Origin: a virus
DNA length: 64,000 bases
Direction: 5' to 3' (one strand)
IMG/VR virus record: IMGVR_UViG_3300040801_002290
Location: 1 to 64,000 of that record
Part shown: positions 7,313 to 54,046 of the stretch, piece by piece
Position numbering within the stretch: the stretch's first letter is position 1
How the letters are laid out: each line of letters opens with the position of its first letter
Position numbers and translations under genes: made by a program
Notes under the pieces: generated by a model
Told to the model about the DNA's origin: nothing
Database searches by the model: none
The model's input: the letters and a program-made list of their open reading frames with translations, nothing else

Positions 7313-7385
7313 TGGAGACCCGTGGCAGAATCGAACTGCCTCTAGTAGTTTTGCAGACTACTTTCTCTCCATGAGAATACGAGTC
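7313..7385 (-). tRNA. tRNA-Cys(GCA)
   Basis: Loop CTGCAAA, U73, CCA. Confidence 0.88.
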
Positions 7386-40410: not shown

Positions 40411-40963
40411 CACTTTCTCTACTGCCGATGTAATCAATGAGTTGAAAAATCATCGGCAGTTTTTTATTGCTTTGTAAAAGTTTATTCGGGCTAAACCTAC
40501 CTAAATGAGAGGAAACGCATTCCATAATCTCATCGTATACCCTCTTCTCTATAAACCTATCAGCATCTGCGTTGAACGGAAACATATATTCTACATATAC
40601 AGGGTGCAGAGGGTCGGTGTAATTTAGAGTTCTGGGTGGTATACCCCTAGAAAAGGAATCGTGCAATATACACGCGGAAATTAGAACATCCCTCTCCCAA
40701 GCATTGAGATTATAAAATCTAACCATATGCTCTGTAAGACGAATTAATCTTCTTACATGCAGGACCAACCCACCAGGCTGTCTTTCATCTTTGGGATGAT
40801 ATTTGCTGTTACTGGCAGGGACCTCCCAAAAGTAGTCTGGGAATCTGTCTATTGAGGAGATTAGAAACTTCTTTATGTTTCCATCTGTCAGCTTTTCAAG
40901 CTCTCCCTCTATGTGGAGCTTGCTTATCTCTCTTAGTTCCATGTTAACCTTTCTATAAGTCAT
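40394..40963 (-). CDS. HD-domain phosphohydrolase
   Basis: PASNSKYH...GGLVLH...ILHD...H.G. Confidence 0.85.
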   Translation of the reverse strand: MTYRKVNMELREISKLHIEGELEKLTDGNIKKFLISSIDRFPDYFWEVPASNSKYHPKDERQPGGLVLHVRRLIRLTEHMVRFYNLNAWERDVLISACILHDSFSRGIPPRTLNYTDPLHPVYVEYMFPFNADADRFIEKRVYDEIMECVSSHLGRFSPNKLLQSNKKLPMIFQLIDYIGSRESVKIDL

Positions 40964-42884
40964 TGAATGGAAGAACGTCAGAAAGGCGCAGTGTTTTTCC
41001 GGACTCTTTTAGTGTTCTCCAGGAGCCTAAGCCTGTGGTCATAGAATTTAGAGACTCCTGATAGGCTGCCTTATCGTCTTCTGTGGCAACTTTATTCTTT
41101 ATTCTTTGTTCTACATTGTTAGTTGCAGAAGTTCCAGCACCCAAAACATCTCTGTAGGGCCACTCATACTTCAAGATTCTAACCATTCTAGCTAGAGCAT
41201 CGCTAATATCTTTTGTCTGCCCCTCTATGTGGTCTATCTTAGGGGGATTTTTCGTTCTATCTTCTCTAAGGTTTCTTAGCTCCTCATAAACAATAGGATG
41301 CCATGGGAAGTCTATTCCACCGTTAGATTCTTTGGTACCTTTTCCGTTAGAGGGAGGAGCTTCACCAAAAATAGCATCCCTAAGAGCGGTATAGTCTTTG
41401 TAGTCTACAATACTTCTGTCATAGACTATCACGTTCTTATACGTTTTTGAAATCCACTGTGTTAGAGAAATGCTATTCCAACCATCGAAGGAAAAGATTC
41501 TTATATTATAACCCATTCTTTCCTTAAGTTTCTTTATTAGATTCTCAACCGCAACCATCTGCACTTGTCCCTCTTCGAACATTCTGCCCGTAAATCTAAA
41601 GGCAAAGTCGATAACGGGTCTTACGTACTTTCTTCCATCCTCGTCGGTTATCATCTCTCGGTGACCAAGACATATTCCATAACCGTCTCCACCATTGGCT
41701 TCGCTTCCAAGGGCTGGGTCTCCGGTTAGAACGTAATAGAAGTTTGGGTTACCGTACTCTTTAATGGGAATGTCATAAGGGTCTAAAACCTGTAGGACAT
41801 CGTTGGAGTCTTTATATTGAGATTCAGACATGGGGGCGGCTCTCCACTCATCGTGGGATTCCTTATTCCACCATAATTCGCTTCCCACCGGCTGGGGGTC
41901 ATAGGGAAGTGGCCAGTCAATAATCCACGGCCTAGTCACATTCATGGCATTCTTTATTCTTCTCTGGTCTTTTAGCCAAGAGTCAACGAAGGAGCCAGAA
42001 TCCTCAGAGCCATACATACAGGCAGCCTTCTCTGGGTTTTCGTTGTAGTAGGTTTGGAAGTCGTCTTTGGACAGAATTGGGTGAAATTCCCAAGACGCAT
42101 AACGTTTTGCGTAAACGTGGTCAAGCCCTCTAGCTTTACTGTAATACTCCATAATCTTACCTGAGGAACCTACATACCTCCGGTAAGAGATTACCATAAT
42201 CTTTTCTTTACCACGAAATCTGGACTGGGAGGAAGTACGAAGAGTGTTTACAATCTTCTCTACTCCGTGGAATTCAACATCATCAACCTCGTCTGCAAGA
42301 GCCATTAAAACGTCGTATCCTTCGATACCACCGGCCCTACTGTTTGCAGAGATAATATGAATATTCTGAGGGAAAGTGATGCTGCTTGCCTGAATGTCAT
42401 TAACTGGGTCAAAGCCAAAGTTCTTAAAAGCTTTGTTACCAGAGGCTCGGATAATATTCTTTAGTGGTTCGAAGAAGTTATCCTGAGCCTGCTTAGCGTT
42501 AATAGCAACGTTGATGAATGTTAAAGCCTTAGCCCGGTTATGGTTAAGGTATTTGTGAGCATCATACATGCATAGAAGCTTATATGCTGCGTAAAGGAAA
42601 AGAATACCGGAAGACCAGTTCTTTCCCCCACCCTTACCTACGAAAAGGACAAAGAAGTTTATTCCATTTTCGAAGTCAGAAGCTTTCTCAATGAATTCCT
42701 TCTGAGCCTCAGACATTCCCCACATCCCCTGATTTAGATAATCCGGGCTGTATACAAATGTCTCAAGGTCAACTGGCTCTATTCTATAAACCTCACCAGA
42801 GGCTTCCTTTACGGCGTGTTCTCCACGACGCATAAGATTACCCCACTCGGAAGTCGCCTTAAAAGCCTCCTTCTTCTTAGGCAT
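40953..42884 (-). CDS. terL: terminase large subunit
   Basis: GKGGGK Walker A, LADEVD Walker B, ISYRR, GDPA, SFDGWNS, KDISDA nuclease acidic residues. Confidence 0.88.
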   Translation of the reverse strand: MPKKKEAFKATSEWGNLMRRGEHAVKEASGEVYRIEPVDLETFVYSPDYLNQGMWGMSEAQKEFIEKASDFENGINFFVLFVGKGGGKNWSSGILFLYAAYKLLCMYDAHKYLNHNRAKALTFINVAINAKQAQDNFFEPLKNIIRASGNKAFKNFGFDPVNDIQASSITFPQNIHIISANSRAGGIEGYDVLMALADEVDDVEFHGVEKIVNTLRTSSQSRFRGKEKIMVISYRRYVGSSGKIMEYYSKARGLDHVYAKRYASWEFHPILSKDDFQTYYNENPEKAACMYGSEDSGSFVDSWLKDQRRIKNAMNVTRPWIIDWPLPYDPQPVGSELWWNKESHDEWRAAPMSESQYKDSNDVLQVLDPYDIPIKEYGNPNFYYVLTGDPALGSEANGGDGYGICLGHREMITDEDGRKYVRPVIDFAFRFTGRMFEEGQVQMVAVENLIKKLKERMGYNIRIFSFDGWNSISLTQWISKTYKNVIVYDRSIVDYKDYTALRDAIFGEAPPSNGKGTKESNGGIDFPWHPIVYEELRNLREDRTKNPPKIDHIEGQTKDISDALARMVRILKYEWPYRDVLGAGTSATNNVEQRIKNKVATEDDKAAYQESLNSMTTGLGSWRTLKESGKTLRLSDVLPFNDL

Positions 42885-50306: not shown

Positions 50307-50642
50307 CTACTCATCAGAGAAGCCAGACCAACCAACATCCCTTGCCTGAAAAGGCTCTCTGTGAACCAGTATAGGAATTCCATTACGCTCTACTGACTCT
50401 ACAAGGAAATGCCTATTGGAGACAAACCAAACCTCCCCATTGTCATTGACAACAGAAAAATAAGCTTCTGAATTCATCTCCCCATTATCATGGACATCCA
50501 AAACCAGGTAAAGTATGTCTGGGTTTAAAAATGCTTCCTGAGGAGTCGGACCTTCAACTATATCGCTTCCTTTATATGTATTAGGTCTAACCCACAAATC
50601 ATAGTTCATACAAGACTCTTTCTTTGCTGAATAGGAACGCAA
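50307..50642 (-). CDS. hypothetical protein
   Basis: ORF; probable start MNYD. Confidence 0.65.
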   Translation of the reverse strand: MRSYSAKKESCMNYDLWVRPNTYKGSDIVEGPTPQEAFLNPDILYLVLDVHDNGEMNSEAYFSVVNDNGEVWFVSNRHFLVESVERNGIPILVHREPFQARDVGWSGFSDE

Positions 50643-51298
50643 GCCTCCCCGTAGTCCTTAATAAGAGCGTCCATATCGCTTATGGAGATAAAGGCATGTC
50701 CCTTCTTTCCCCAGTGCCTACCCCAACTGTTCTTGATTCTGAAAAGCCCCTTTTCCAGGTCAACACCGTTGATTACGTAAGCGTGTCCACCAGTGTTGGA
50801 GCCAGTTGCACGAATCAAGCCTTCTGCATCAGGATAGAACATGTCCTGCTTCCACCAAGTACCAACGATAACTGGACCTAGGGTTAGAATGGTTTGCGCT
50901 ACTTCGTCAGCGTTACTAGCCCACCTGTACTCTTTAATATGTCCCCACTCCTGCAAGACCTTCGCACCAGCACGTACGCTGGTACCATCGTATAGAGGGG
51001 TGGTACAGTCTCCAGGCCACGGGTCTAGCTTCTGAGCTTCACAATAAAGAACAGAAGTATCTATAGACGGTCTGTTCTTCTTGAAAATACTGGTTAACTG
51101 AGGGCCATCATTTAGCCAGTGAGCCCAAGAAAAAGCAACGCAGTGAGGGGTGTGACCCTGGTCTCCCCACCAACCCTCTGACCACCAAAATCTTTTGGTA
51201 GCGGTGGAGCGTCGAGAGACCAGCATTGGAGTTATGGGGTAAAGGCTGTCTCTGTCGTCCTCAACGTAAAGCCTCCCCATTGAATATTCTCTTGACAT
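50606..51298 (-). CDS. papain-like cysteine peptidase (C1)
   Basis: DQG..PHCVAFS, GGHAY, IKNSWG..WG. Confidence 0.92.
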   Translation of the reverse strand: MSREYSMGRLYVEDDRDSLYPITPMLVSRRSTATKRFWWSEGWWGDQGHTPHCVAFSWAHWLNDGPQLTSIFKKNRPSIDTSVLYCEAQKLDPWPGDCTTPLYDGTSVRAGAKVLQEWGHIKEYRWASNADEVAQTILTLGPVIVGTWWKQDMFYPDAEGLIRATGSNTGGHAYVINGVDLEKGLFRIKNSWGRHWGKKGHAFISISDMDALIKDYGEACVPIQQRKSLV

Positions 51299-51762
51299 TA
51301 TTCACCTCCCTGAGAGGAAAATAGAAATACTCCTGCTGGAATTCCAACTTCGGAGGTTATGGTGTAATTTCCCTCAAAGCTTCCTTCTAGGACTGAGCCC
51401 GTTAAACCAAGGGCAGTAATGTCTTCGCAGAAAACAATTAGGTCTACGCTTGCAGCAGTTTGAGTTCCACCAACAGAGCATGGTGCATCGTTGGTATCAA
51501 AAATCCAGTTTCCAGAAATGCTTCCACTTTCTGTCTGTGGAGCGAGATTCATATTCACTATAATTCTCTGATTTTCTTCATTGCCCGAAGCGTCGGTAAA
51601 GGAAAAGTAAATCGCCCCTACCCAATCTCCTTCTAGGAGGGTGGTCTCAACTACTGGTGGCGGGGGAAAAACTACATCTTCCTCTTCGTCTACCACGTCA
51701 GGTGGCCAACATGCCACCAAAAGAAGTGGTAAAATCGCAATTAAAAACAGCTTTTTTATCAT
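51298..51762 (-). CDS. lipoprotein
   Basis: LLLVAC lipobox, LEGDW.G beta-rich fold. Confidence 0.75.
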   Translation of the reverse strand: MIKKLFLIAILPLLLVACWPPDVVDEEEDVVFPPPPVVETTLLEGDWVGAIYFSFTDASGNEENQRIIVNMNLAPQTESGSISGNWIFDTNDAPCSVGGTQTAASVDLIVFCEDITALGLTGSVLEGSFEGNYTITSEVGIPAGVFLFSSQGGE

Positions 51763-51779
51763 ATGTCTCCTTAAAATAG

Positions 51780-51805
51780 AGGGGCGAAGATATAACTACG
51801 CCCCT
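51780..51805 (-). terminator. terminator after the nrdJ-micropeptide unit
   Basis: AGGGGCG/CGCCCCT hairpin plus T-rich tail. Confidence 0.65.
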
Positions 51806-51810
51806 AATGA

Positions 51811-51852
51811 TTACTTACAACCGCACTTGCAACCGCATCCACATCCACACAT
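51811..51852 (-). CDS. 13-aa Cys-rich micropeptide MCGCGCGCKCGCK
   Basis: AAGGAGG RBS 6 nt upstream, overlapping the nrdJ stop codon; varied Cys and Gly codons. Confidence 0.65.
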   Translation of the reverse strand: MCGCGCGCKCGCK

Positions 51853-51863
51853 AGCTACCCTCC

Positions 51864-53741
51864 TTATGTAACTTCGCAACTGGCACCATAGCAAGCCAGA
51901 TTATCTGCCAATGATGTATTATCTTCTGGTTCAATGACCTTTGTCAAATCAACCATAGATAGAGTTTTAATCATTCTTTCGTATGTTTCAGCATCACAGT
52001 CCTCAAAAGGTGCCTGTTGATAACTGTGGTCACTGTGAGGCAGACAGGAAACAGCGGTAAAACTTTCGTTATGCTCCCAGAGGAAATCTCTAACTTCATC
52101 CCATTCGTCGTCCTTGATGTTAATAGTGCAACTAACGTTGTGGGTGTTGTCACCTAAAATATGTCCGGGCTTAATCCAATCCTCGTGCAGAAGCTGAACT
52201 CTTTCAAGAAGGCTTACGGCAGTTTCTGTGTGTCTAGTGACTGCGCCCTCTGGTGCCTTCTGTGGGACCGTAATTACCGCAGTCGTTTCTGGAGAGAAGA
52301 ATTCATCCTCGATTAGTTCTGGGTGGTAGATGGCTAGGTATGCGTAAATAGCCTCATTCTTGTTAACCCTAATCCTACGTAGGTAGTAGTCGTTGTGCCA
52401 CGCATGAACGCCTGAGGAGGAACCTAGAACTAGACTGGTGGTGCCACTAGGCTTAACCGTGGTAACTCTTCTAGCGTGGTTAATTCCTAGCATGTCAGCT
52501 ACTCTACGGTTCTCTTCTACAGAAACCTGAGCGGCTTGCTCCATGTCTAGCTTAGTTACTGTACCGCTCGCAATACCAGTCATGCTAACTCCGAGTAGAG
52601 CTTCCTTTTCCGCAGTCTCTCTCCACTCGTCCCTTAGGTAGTAGAAGTCGGTGTAAGCTGCTTGCAGAGTTCCGATAAAAGCAGCGGCCTTAGCTCTGGC
52701 GTTATAGTCGTCCTGGTCAACAATACTGGCTGCATTAATCTCTGTAAGGTTGCAAAAACCGTAAGGTTTCAATGAGATTTCCGCGCAGGGATTTGTGCCG
52801 ATTTCTTTGTCATTAGTGAAGTAAAATCCAGGCTCACCGGCACCGCTGGCACGCATGTATTCCCAAACCTCATTAAAGCTTTCTTTGTTCATGCGGTGAC
52901 GAAGCAGTACAGCGGAGTTGTTTGCCCTACCACGCTGAGGGTTCAACTCATACCAAGCACCGGACTTGGAAGAGGCCATAGCATTGTCGCCATAGCTGAA
53001 CAGTGAAATCATGGCTGCCCTACGAATACCCCCACTAAGAACCGCATCAGCAATATGGCACTGAATATCGTGAGCTTCTACAGTAGTTAGTTTTGAACCG
53101 GGTTCCTTTTCGGCTAAAATGGCTTCGATTTTCGTGAGACAGATTTTCAATGGCTCGGGACCTGGTGCCTTACCGCCACTAGTAACAAGACGAGCGCCCT
53201 TCTTACGAATGTCTCTAAAATCAAAAACTGGACGTGTGGTCTTTGAAGGGTCTAGATAAGCCCGCATAAGAACGAGGACGGCATCTGCCCATCCGGTGAT
53301 ACTATCGTCTACCAAAAACCTTCTTGTCTTCTGTGGCTTCTTAATAGGGGGAAGCTGCTCAACGTGGTGACGCTGAACAGAGTAACCAACACCGGTACCA
53401 GAAAGGAGAAGAAACATGGTCTCGGAAAAGGCTTCTATATCTTTTACGGGGAGGTAGGAACAGTTGTATAGCCTAGCATTGTTCAACTCTACTGCTCTAC
53501 CGGCAAACTGCATACTCCTCATGGAAGGCAGAACTTTCTTAGTCCTTACAAAGTTATCGTAGACTTCGGTAATCTCCTCAGCCAAAGCAGGAAACTTCTC
53601 AACATGCATTGCTAAGTTTCTGTCTACCAACTCATCCCAAGTCTCTCTTCTCTCTTCTTCTGGAAGGTACTTGGCGTACTTCATAAAGACGGTAATTTCA
53701 GAGAGAATATCTCTAGCTGTCTCATCCTGCCTTTTTGTCAT
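51864..53741 (-). CDS. nrdJ: class II (B12-dependent) ribonucleotide reductase
   Basis: RSMQFAG, NCS, GTGVGYS, TNPCAEI, CNLTE, VKPSGT, C-terminal C...C pair. Confidence 0.93.
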   Translation of the reverse strand: MTKRQDETARDILSEITVFMKYAKYLPEEERRETWDELVDRNLAMHVEKFPALAEEITEVYDNFVRTKKVLPSMRSMQFAGRAVELNNARLYNCSYLPVKDIEAFSETMFLLLSGTGVGYSVQRHHVEQLPPIKKPQKTRRFLVDDSITGWADAVLVLMRAYLDPSKTTRPVFDFRDIRKKGARLVTSGGKAPGPEPLKICLTKIEAILAEKEPGSKLTTVEAHDIQCHIADAVLSGGIRRAAMISLFSYGDNAMASSKSGAWYELNPQRGRANNSAVLLRHRMNKESFNEVWEYMRASGAGEPGFYFTNDKEIGTNPCAEISLKPYGFCNLTEINAASIVDQDDYNARAKAAAFIGTLQAAYTDFYYLRDEWRETAEKEALLGVSMTGIASGTVTKLDMEQAAQVSVEENRRVADMLGINHARRVTTVKPSGTTSLVLGSSSGVHAWHNDYYLRRIRVNKNEAIYAYLAIYHPELIEDEFFSPETTAVITVPQKAPEGAVTRHTETAVSLLERVQLLHEDWIKPGHILGDNTHNVSCTINIKDDEWDEVRDFLWEHNESFTAVSCLPHSDHSYQQAPFEDCDAETYERMIKTLSMVDLTKVIEPEDNTSLADNLACYGASCEVT

Positions 53742-54046
53742 TCTGACACCCCGCTGTATTCAGAAAAAGCCGCTTCGTAGTCTCTCTTCGCCCTGAGACC
53801 AGTAAATGTCTTTTTCTCTACTCCGTTTACAAAAAGCATAACCGTAGGAACGGCACGAATCTGATGCTTCATAGCCAATTCCTGAGCTTCATCAACGTTG
53901 ACCTTCAAAAACCGTAGGTTAGAGTATTTCTGTGAAAGGTCTTCCATGATTGGCCCAAGCATTCTGCAAGGCTGACACCAGGGGGCGGTAAAGTAAACCA
54001 CCGAGTTGGTGTAATCCATTTGTGATAATCCCGTAACTTCCGTCAT
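53738..54046 (-). CDS. trxA: thioredoxin
   Basis: FTAPWCQPC. Confidence 0.95.
   Translation of the reverse strand: MTEVTGLSQMDYTNSVVYFTAPWCQPCRMLGPIMEDLSQKYSNLRFLKVNVDEAQELAMKHQIRAVPTVMLFVNGVEKKTFTGLRAKRDYEAAFSEYSGVSE

Follow-up and report, generated by a model that had tools for sequence, protein, structure and literature searches.

Organization of the locus

The window (the whole 64,000-nucleotide stretch of DNA that was analyzed) belongs to an IMG/VR virus record of 194 kb that is 97% complete and has 44.5% G+C. All of the features considered here lie on its minus strand and are listed in 5′ to 3′ order.

53738..54046, minus strand: phage thioredoxin gene (trx), 102 aa (Pfam PF00085 Thioredoxin, E 2.7e-22)
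51864..53741, minus strand: nrdJ, a monomeric-type class II (adenosylcobalamin) ribonucleotide reductase, 625 aa (Pfam PF02867 and PF21995)
51859..51866, minus strand: TAAGGAGG, the nrdJ stop codon fused with the Shine-Dalgarno (SD) site of the micro-gene (read directly)
51811..51852, minus strand: micro-gene, with ATG at 51852-51850, 12 more codons and TAA at 51813-51811; peptide MCGCGCGCKCGCK (by translation)
51773..51805, minus strand: terminator-like hairpin plus CTATTTT, with arms at 51805-51799 and 51786-51780 (from RNA folds)
51298..51762, minus strand: next gene, 154 aa, with a lipoprotein-like N-terminus (lipobox L-V-A-C) and its own AAGGAG site (from the ORF list)

The 3′ end of trx overlaps the start of nrdJ by 4 nt. 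The 3′ end of nrdJ reads ...ACA TAA, and its stop codon (51866-51864) forms the first three bases of TAAGGAGG, after which a 6-nt spacer leads to the ATG of the micro-gene. The SD site is in the strongest class of the genome, in which a 6-nt site precedes just 14 of 211 long ORFs. The codons after the ATG (TGT GGA TGT GGA TGC GGT TGC AAG TGC GGT TGT AAG) employ both Cys codons and two Gly codons, and the peptide has 6 Cys among 13 residues. The hairpin (51805-51780) begins 5 nt past the micro-gene stop and has 7 G+C-rich base pairs, a 12-nt loop and a folding energy of -14.9 kcal/mol; it is followed by CTATTTT, AAGGAG and the ATG of the next gene at 51762, in that order. Note that the hairpin is absent from a consensus terminator scan because the loop limit of that scan is 8 nt.

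Most of what had been claimed for this locus by the original prediction stands. The 13-residue ORF was given with the right coordinates and sequence, and the strand has to be corrected to minus. Direct reading bears out that the nrdJ stop lies inside the SD site 6 nt before the ATG. The mixed use of TGT and TGC and of GGA and GGT, put forward as a sign that the ORF is not a plain DNA repeat, is also as described, with TRF detecting only a weak 12-nt repeat of 2.1 copies in the 3′ half. The proposed terminator can be recognized in the terminator-like hairpin, and the overall picture of an unannotated micro-gene that is translationally attached to nrdJ and closes, or nearly closes, the trx-nrdJ unit is supported.

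Upstream of trx are two unknown ORFs and, beyond them, RecA and a Rad52-like gene. Downstream of the micro-gene are the 154-aa lipoprotein-like gene, a papain-family peptidase and Hsp20. The lipoprotein-like gene has no match in Pfam or NCBIfam and is best treated as a neighbor, not demonstrably a member of the trx-nrdJ unit. Together with the papain-family (C1) peptidase gene it forms a conserved pair 3′ of nrdJ (50606-51762, minus strand) in one of the two layouts described below.

The micro-gene stands out from the rest of the genome. Only three intergenic ATG ORFs of 5 to 40 codons with an SD site of at least 5 nt exist in the whole 194 kb, the micro-gene included, and one of the other two abuts the contig end. 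When ORFs of 8 to 45 codons were taken from all six frames of the 194 kb, the micro-gene was the only one to reach 4 Cys together with a Cys content of 25%. Cys makes up 0.42% of the proteome (ORFs of 150 aa or more). This Cys-poor phage nevertheless encodes a tRNA-Cys(GCA), at 7313-7385, among its 31 tRNA genes.

The relationships of other genes in the window are mixed. A 643-aa terminase-like protein (40953-42884, minus strand) is closest to that of Thermus phage phiYS40/TMA (42%), whereas the nearest relative of NrdJ (51864-53741, minus strand) among cultured phages is found in Microcystis phage Mel-JY01 (58%). No relative of the window NrdJ was detectable in Thermus phage phiYS40, which has the nearest TerL.

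Presence and absence in related loci

A large protein collection contained 18 NrdJ proteins with 78-90% identity to that of the window. DNA was obtained for 11, yielding 11 distinct loci plus four duplicates; the comparison was made without the close NrdJ relatives P0002, P0003, P0005, P0011, P0013, P0015 and P0017. A clade-specific pattern derived from the NrdJ tail, which matches 15 of 15 close loci and 0 of 80 distant ones, added two metagenome contigs (JGI); the same pattern retrieved no further loci from IMG/VR and GTDB genomes. The final set consists of 14 distinct loci including the window, and in the 11 related loci with full-length NrdJ this protein is 78-90% identical to that of the window.

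A Cys-rich ATG ORF follows nrdJ directly in 10 of the 14 distinct loci. These ORFs have 11 to 22 codons, 4 to 9 Cys and a Cys content of 31-50%, and their starts range from 4 nt ahead of the nrdJ stop to 24 nt past it. Each of the ten is preceded by an SD site of 5 to 10 nt, often GGAGGTGAT, and the sites of the relatives are as strong as or stronger than that of the window. In every fetched locus (6 to 9 kb, six frames) the ORF behind nrdJ is the sole Cys-rich short ORF outside other genes. The homologues are located as follows.

L097:5746-5799: micro-gene homologue
L098:5929-5970: micro-gene homologue
L100:4887-4928: micro-gene homologue
L102:3815-3850: micro-gene homologue
L103:5802-5840: micro-gene homologue
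L104:3436-3495: micro-gene homologue
L109:4884-4940: micro-gene homologue
L110:5698-5736: micro-gene homologue
L230:104-172: micro-gene homologue

The remaining four loci (L096, L101, L106 and L231) lack the micro-gene. In L096 and L106, nrdJ is coupled straight to the lipoprotein-like gene, and in L101 and L231 an HNH-like gene lies directly behind nrdJ. The latter gene (L101:2384-2845, and about 60 nt past the nrdJ stop in L231) begins VKKIDM..G.RFG..(L/T)V and has the look of an HNH-type homing endonuclease; both contigs end within it, and the micro-gene there may be displaced or lost.

In a NrdJ tree, the 12 close loci with full-length NrdJ form one clade (100/100). ORF-bearing loci occur in both of its subclades and three ORF-less loci are nested inside one subclade; the micro-gene is therefore best read as ancestral in the clade, with at least two losses. 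Two of the loci without it, L101 (90%) and L096 (89%), have the closest NrdJ relatives of the window, so the gene is dispensable. No Cys-rich ORF was found after nrdJ where the NrdJ homologues are 58-64% identical (80 IMG/VR loci at 61-64%, and Microcystis phage Mel-JY01).

Some of the close NrdJ relatives are 909 to 971 aa long, versus about 625, and have intein or LAGLIDADG Pfam matches; nrdJ of the window is intein-free. The long forms are at the following positions.

L096:3001-5790: long NrdJ relative (intein/LAGLIDADG)
L097:3001-5730: long NrdJ relative (intein/LAGLIDADG)
L098:3001-5916: long NrdJ relative (intein/LAGLIDADG)
L103:3001-5787: long NrdJ relative (intein/LAGLIDADG)
L110:2896-5682: long NrdJ relative (intein/LAGLIDADG)

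Searches beyond the clade yielded no additional family members. DNA of the trx-nrdJ region had no match among GenBank phages. IMG/VR was scanned with patterns for the codons of the micro-gene itself, for its C-terminal half and for a CPCG-type core, and no true relatives were present among the matches listed, which were simple repeats and out-of-frame readings of repeat proteins. In IMG/VR and GTDB genomes, a pattern combining SD site, ATG and CPCG picked up no member of the family beside nrdJ, returning only two bacterial 9-codon look-alikes, both Cys-rich with a strong SD site and each a singleton among GTDB representative genomes. One (L249:5771-5800, minus strand), from an actinomycete MAG, directly follows, and is coupled to, a gene for a fusion of ArsM-like (arsenite-methyltransferase) and ArsN2-like proteins; the stop of this gene sits inside TAAGGAGGTGA, so that stop and SD site are arranged as they are behind nrdJ. 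The other (L251:785-814, minus strand), from a spirochaete MAG, lies after a MarR gene and before a terminator. Rfam gave sub-threshold noise only for the micro-gene region, and full-text literature searches found no paper on a phage metallothionein or on a phage Cys-rich micro-gene beside RNR.

Coding constraint

The ten micro-genes are 11, 12, 12, 13, 13, 13, 17, 18, 19 and 22 codons long. Indels are thus in whole codons. Aligned Cys codons from the ten loci swap between TGT and TGC and still specify Cys. The SD site, the ATG and the first Cys codons are kept, and the DNA 3′ of the stop codon is unrelated between loci. Loss of the frame in homologous loci had been named beforehand as an outcome that would count against the gene; the frame is kept, with synonymous variation, behind nrdJ in 10 of the 14 loci.

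This pattern bears on the proposal that the ORF has no function of its own, being either an open repeat born by slippage or a mere spacer by which ribosomes are handed on from nrdJ to the gene behind it. Part of the micro-gene is indeed a 12-nt repeat, and the gene is dispensable in the four related loci that lack it, where nrdJ couples directly to the next gene. However, it has been retained in a clade whose NrdJ proteins diverge by up to about 20%, its SD site, ATG, frame and Cys codons are kept while the flanks diverge, its composition is extreme and no other ORF of this kind exists in the 194 kb. Lack of function is thus the least probable of the explanations considered here. We conclude that the 13-codon ORF is very probably a real gene of the kind that gene finders miss, and that it is one of a family predicted to encode peptides of 11 to 22 residues behind nrdJ in one clade of large uncultured phages.

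Gene order behind nrdJ

Two layouts are found downstream. Homologues of the 154-aa lipoprotein-like gene follow nrdJ or the micro-gene in L096, L097, L104, L106 and L109. In the first layout, which is that of the window, the micro-gene follows nrdJ and is in turn followed by the lipoprotein-like gene. In L097, L104 and L109 the end of the micro-gene meets the lipoprotein-like start directly or overlaps with it; in the window a hairpin separates the two. The called start of the lipoprotein-like gene in L104 falls within the micro-gene, in a different frame. In the second layout (L098, L100, L102, L103 and L110), a clear intrinsic terminator comes right behind the micro-gene, with unrelated genes beyond. 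The micro-gene of L230, a contig that does not cover the upstream layout, likewise has a clear intrinsic terminator and unrelated genes behind it. In six related loci the terminator after the micro-gene is clearer than the hairpin of the window. Because the 3′ genes differ between layouts, the constant partner of the micro-gene is nrdJ (with trx), not the downstream gene.

An arrangement of Cys codons before a hairpin could also indicate a Cys-sensing regulatory ORF. The speed of ribosomes on its Cys codons would report the level of charged tRNA-Cys and in this way control termination, translation of what lies downstream or mRNA decay, much as leader-peptide attenuators or the mycobacterial polycysteine ORFs do, and the peptide itself would be irrelevant. 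The micro-gene has a high density of Cys codons, a hairpin comes after it in the window and in six relatives, and in three loci it is coupled to the start of the next gene. Moreover, the mycobacterial polycysteine short ORFs, which act as Cys-responsive attenuators, are likewise unannotated, very short, Cys-codon-rich and located within operons (bioRxiv 10.1101/834739). Those of the Cys ribulon, however, are leaderless first cistrons upstream of cysteine-metabolism genes, with an RNA duplex over the next ribosome-binding site (bioRxiv 10.1101/834739). The micro-gene is not a leader; it is SD-led, comes after nrdJ as the last or an internal cistron, and often precedes a terminator. The genes past it (lipoprotein-like, papain-type peptidase, Hsp20 or unrelated) are outside cysteine metabolism or behind the terminator. 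RNA folds revealed no antiterminator and no pairing that would sequester a ribosome-binding site (z-score -0.45, with the terminator hairpin alone being stable), and no sequence complementary to the 5′ arm of the terminator, as a classical attenuator would have, was found within or before the micro-gene. Between about 2 and 29 nt separate the micro-gene stop from the hairpin, depending on the locus, and the Cys codons alternate rather than being consecutive. Finally, the restriction of the non-Cys positions to residues that are small or hydrophilic would be unnecessary in a codon sensor. For these reasons we regard Cys sensing as very unlikely.

Relation to ribonucleotide reductase

The sole PDB match of the window NrdJ is 1L1L, the monomeric ribonucleoside-triphosphate reductase of L. 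leichmannii. Because the alignment extends to the last residues, the CX4C tail that takes electrons from thioredoxin is present in NrdJ.

The peptide might be a dedicated accessory of the monomeric class II RNR and its thioredoxin, acting in trans as an electron relay to NrdJ, binding this enzyme structurally (perhaps with Zn) or protecting its catalytic thiols or cofactor. In that case it would correspond, in miniature, to the Cys-rich C-terminal domain that is found in non-monomeric NrdJ and that split enzymes encode separately. The micro-gene always comes directly behind nrdJ, whichever gene follows, and its translation is tied to the nrdJ stop codon. In E. coli, nrdAB precedes yfaE, which encodes a small ferredoxin servicing NrdB, and we take this to be a precedent for small Cys proteins ending RNR operons. 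In addition, most non-monomeric NrdJ enzymes need a six-Cys, Zn-binding C-terminal domain for turnover, and in NrdJa+b this domain is a separate gene (PMC5704485); it resembles the micro-gene in being a Cys-rich element of a B12-dependent RNR that can form a separable gene after the catalytic one.

Several observations speak against such a role. With a complete L. leichmannii-type tail in NrdJ and a phage Trx upstream, the known electron path is already complete. The published domain has 150 to 220 residues, six invariant Cys in CxxC spacing and one Zn, whereas the micro-peptides have 11 to 22 residues and CxC spacing (PMC5704485). It also never occurs with NrdJm (PMC5704485), and the 1L1L match, tail included, places the window enzyme with the monomeric type. 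Loci whose NrdJ is 89-90% identical to that of the window, with tails like those of micro-gene-bearing loci, lack the micro-gene, as do the nrdJ genes at 58-64% identity, that of Microcystis phage Mel-JY01 included.

The earlier suggestion of a thiol redox shuttle for the RNR is left unsupported by the monomeric NrdJ with its own CX4C tail, by the Trx upstream and by the two nearest relatives without the micro-gene. An accessory role in general should be considered unlikely, and the narrower proposal of a new, separately encoded component of monomeric class II RNR, a 13-residue thiol/metal module that would bind NrdJ or the phage thioredoxin, distinctly improbable. If it were true that such a module alters electron delivery, cofactor protection or metal sensitivity, it would be the smallest known RNR accessory subunit. 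The fixed place behind nrdJ makes this a concrete hypothesis on NrdJ and Trx.

Peptide composition and candidate metal binding

Pooled over the ten peptides, Cys accounts for 59 of 140 non-initiator residues. The other 81 are 30 Gly, 15 Lys, 8 Asp, 7 Pro, 6 Ser, a few Asn, Arg, Ala, Thr and Glu, one Trp and one Met. The residues L, I, V, F, M, Y, H and Q amount to 1 of these 81 (the Met), versus 37% expected from the proteome; a naive binomial test gives P of about 3e-15 for this hydrophobic shortage, a value that is overstated, the sequences being related. All ten members have C-x-C motifs (2 to 5 per peptide), and at least one CxxC is present in just 3 of 10.

The defining features of metallothioneins are a low mass, a high Cys content and C-x-C/CC motifs (PMC4755600). 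All ten micro-peptides are of low mass and high in Cys (with roughly 15-35% or more taken as high), and they combine motifs of the C-x-C/CC/C-x-x-C class with few aromatic or hydrophobic residues. The binding of d10 metal ions in metal-thiolate clusters, which also marks the class, is a prediction for them. Pfam and PDB sequence searches with the 22-residue members as queries gave no match at E values up to 10; the shorter peptides fall below the 20-residue minimum of these searches. The likeness to metallothioneins is for these reasons one of composition and spacing.

Judged by sequence, the function of the micro-gene is probably metal or thiol chemistry. The composition, the conservation and the unusually strong SD site favor a thiolate metal-binding peptide, miniature and metallothionein-like, that would be made with the phage Trx-NrdJ unit, and we put the chances of this at about even. 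Both an RNR redox partner and a Cys-sensing leader are less likely.

In the mechanism proposed, ribosomes leaving nrdJ would start on the micro-gene by way of the very strong ribosome-binding site, which overlaps the nrdJ stop or abuts it. The peptide would thus be co-produced, probably abundantly, with phage thioredoxin and the B12-dependent reductase. Most likely it would work through its cysteine thiolates: alternating C-x-C units, with Gly, Lys, Asp, Pro and Ser as spacers, would enclose soft metal ions such as Zn(II), Cu(I) or Cd(II) in a small metal-thiolate cluster, with the shortest members possibly forming a dimer or oligomer. The peptide would then be an analogue of metallothioneins or phytochelatins that is miniature and made by ribosomes. 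A plausible benefit would be that thiophilic metals or oxidants are buffered during the supply of dNTPs by the thiol-dependent Trx/RNR system. The arsenic context of the actinomycete look-alike is a weak, anecdotal hint that such peptides handle thiophilic elements.

Some findings count against metal binding. No metal sensor or transporter occurs among the Pfam-annotated neighbors, and the micro-gene is missing from 4 of 14 loci. The Cys count varies from 4 to 9, which argues against a single defined cluster geometry. Since part of the micro-gene is a short DNA repeat, some of the length variation may be slippage.

The thiols might also act neither through metals nor through RNR. The peptide could, for example, be a redox buffer, serve host thiol-disulfide enzymes as a decoy substrate, inhibit some host protein or itself be modified. 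The constraint on the peptide is strong yet not metal-specific, and its Cys-Gly repeats resemble the Cys-Gly end of glutathione. Against modification, no gene for a modifying enzyme (radical SAM, cyclase) lies near the micro-gene and the peptide has no leader region; these readings in general have no positive evidence of their own. As a group they are quite unlikely, although we rank them above Cys sensing and just below an RNR accessory.

Should the peptide be produced and bind metal, the lower size limit for metallothionein-like molecules encoded by a gene would be roughly halved, from 26 residues to 11-13, and large phages would be seen to carry their own thiol or metal buffer beside the genes for dNTP synthesis. 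The ten natural variants, with 4 to 9 Cys, provide a clean and easily synthesized test case. The micro-gene also illustrates that functional phage genes below about 30 codons are missed by gene finders.

Comparison with known systems

The shortest metallothioneins reported have 26 residues and 7 Cys (PMC4755600). These Cu-thioneins, from Neurospora crassa and Agaricus bisporus, are like the micro-peptides in having about one third or more Cys and low mass, with Gly, Ser, Asn and Lys as spacers of the C-x-C motifs and aromatic or hydrophobic residues essentially absent (PMC4755600). The micro-peptides differ in that they are half the length or less (11 to 22 residues), have a variable number of Cys (4 to 9), are phage-encoded, share no detectable homology with the Cu-thioneins and are known from sequence alone.

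Phytochelatins, (gamma-Glu-Cys)n-Gly, are made enzymatically from glutathione, have gamma-linkages and chelate soft metals via several thiolates per chain. The (Cys-Gly)n core of the window peptide recalls them, in that both consist of short repeats in which Cys alternates with one other residue. The window peptide, in contrast, would be a ribosomal product with alpha-linkages and with Gly or Lys as spacers.
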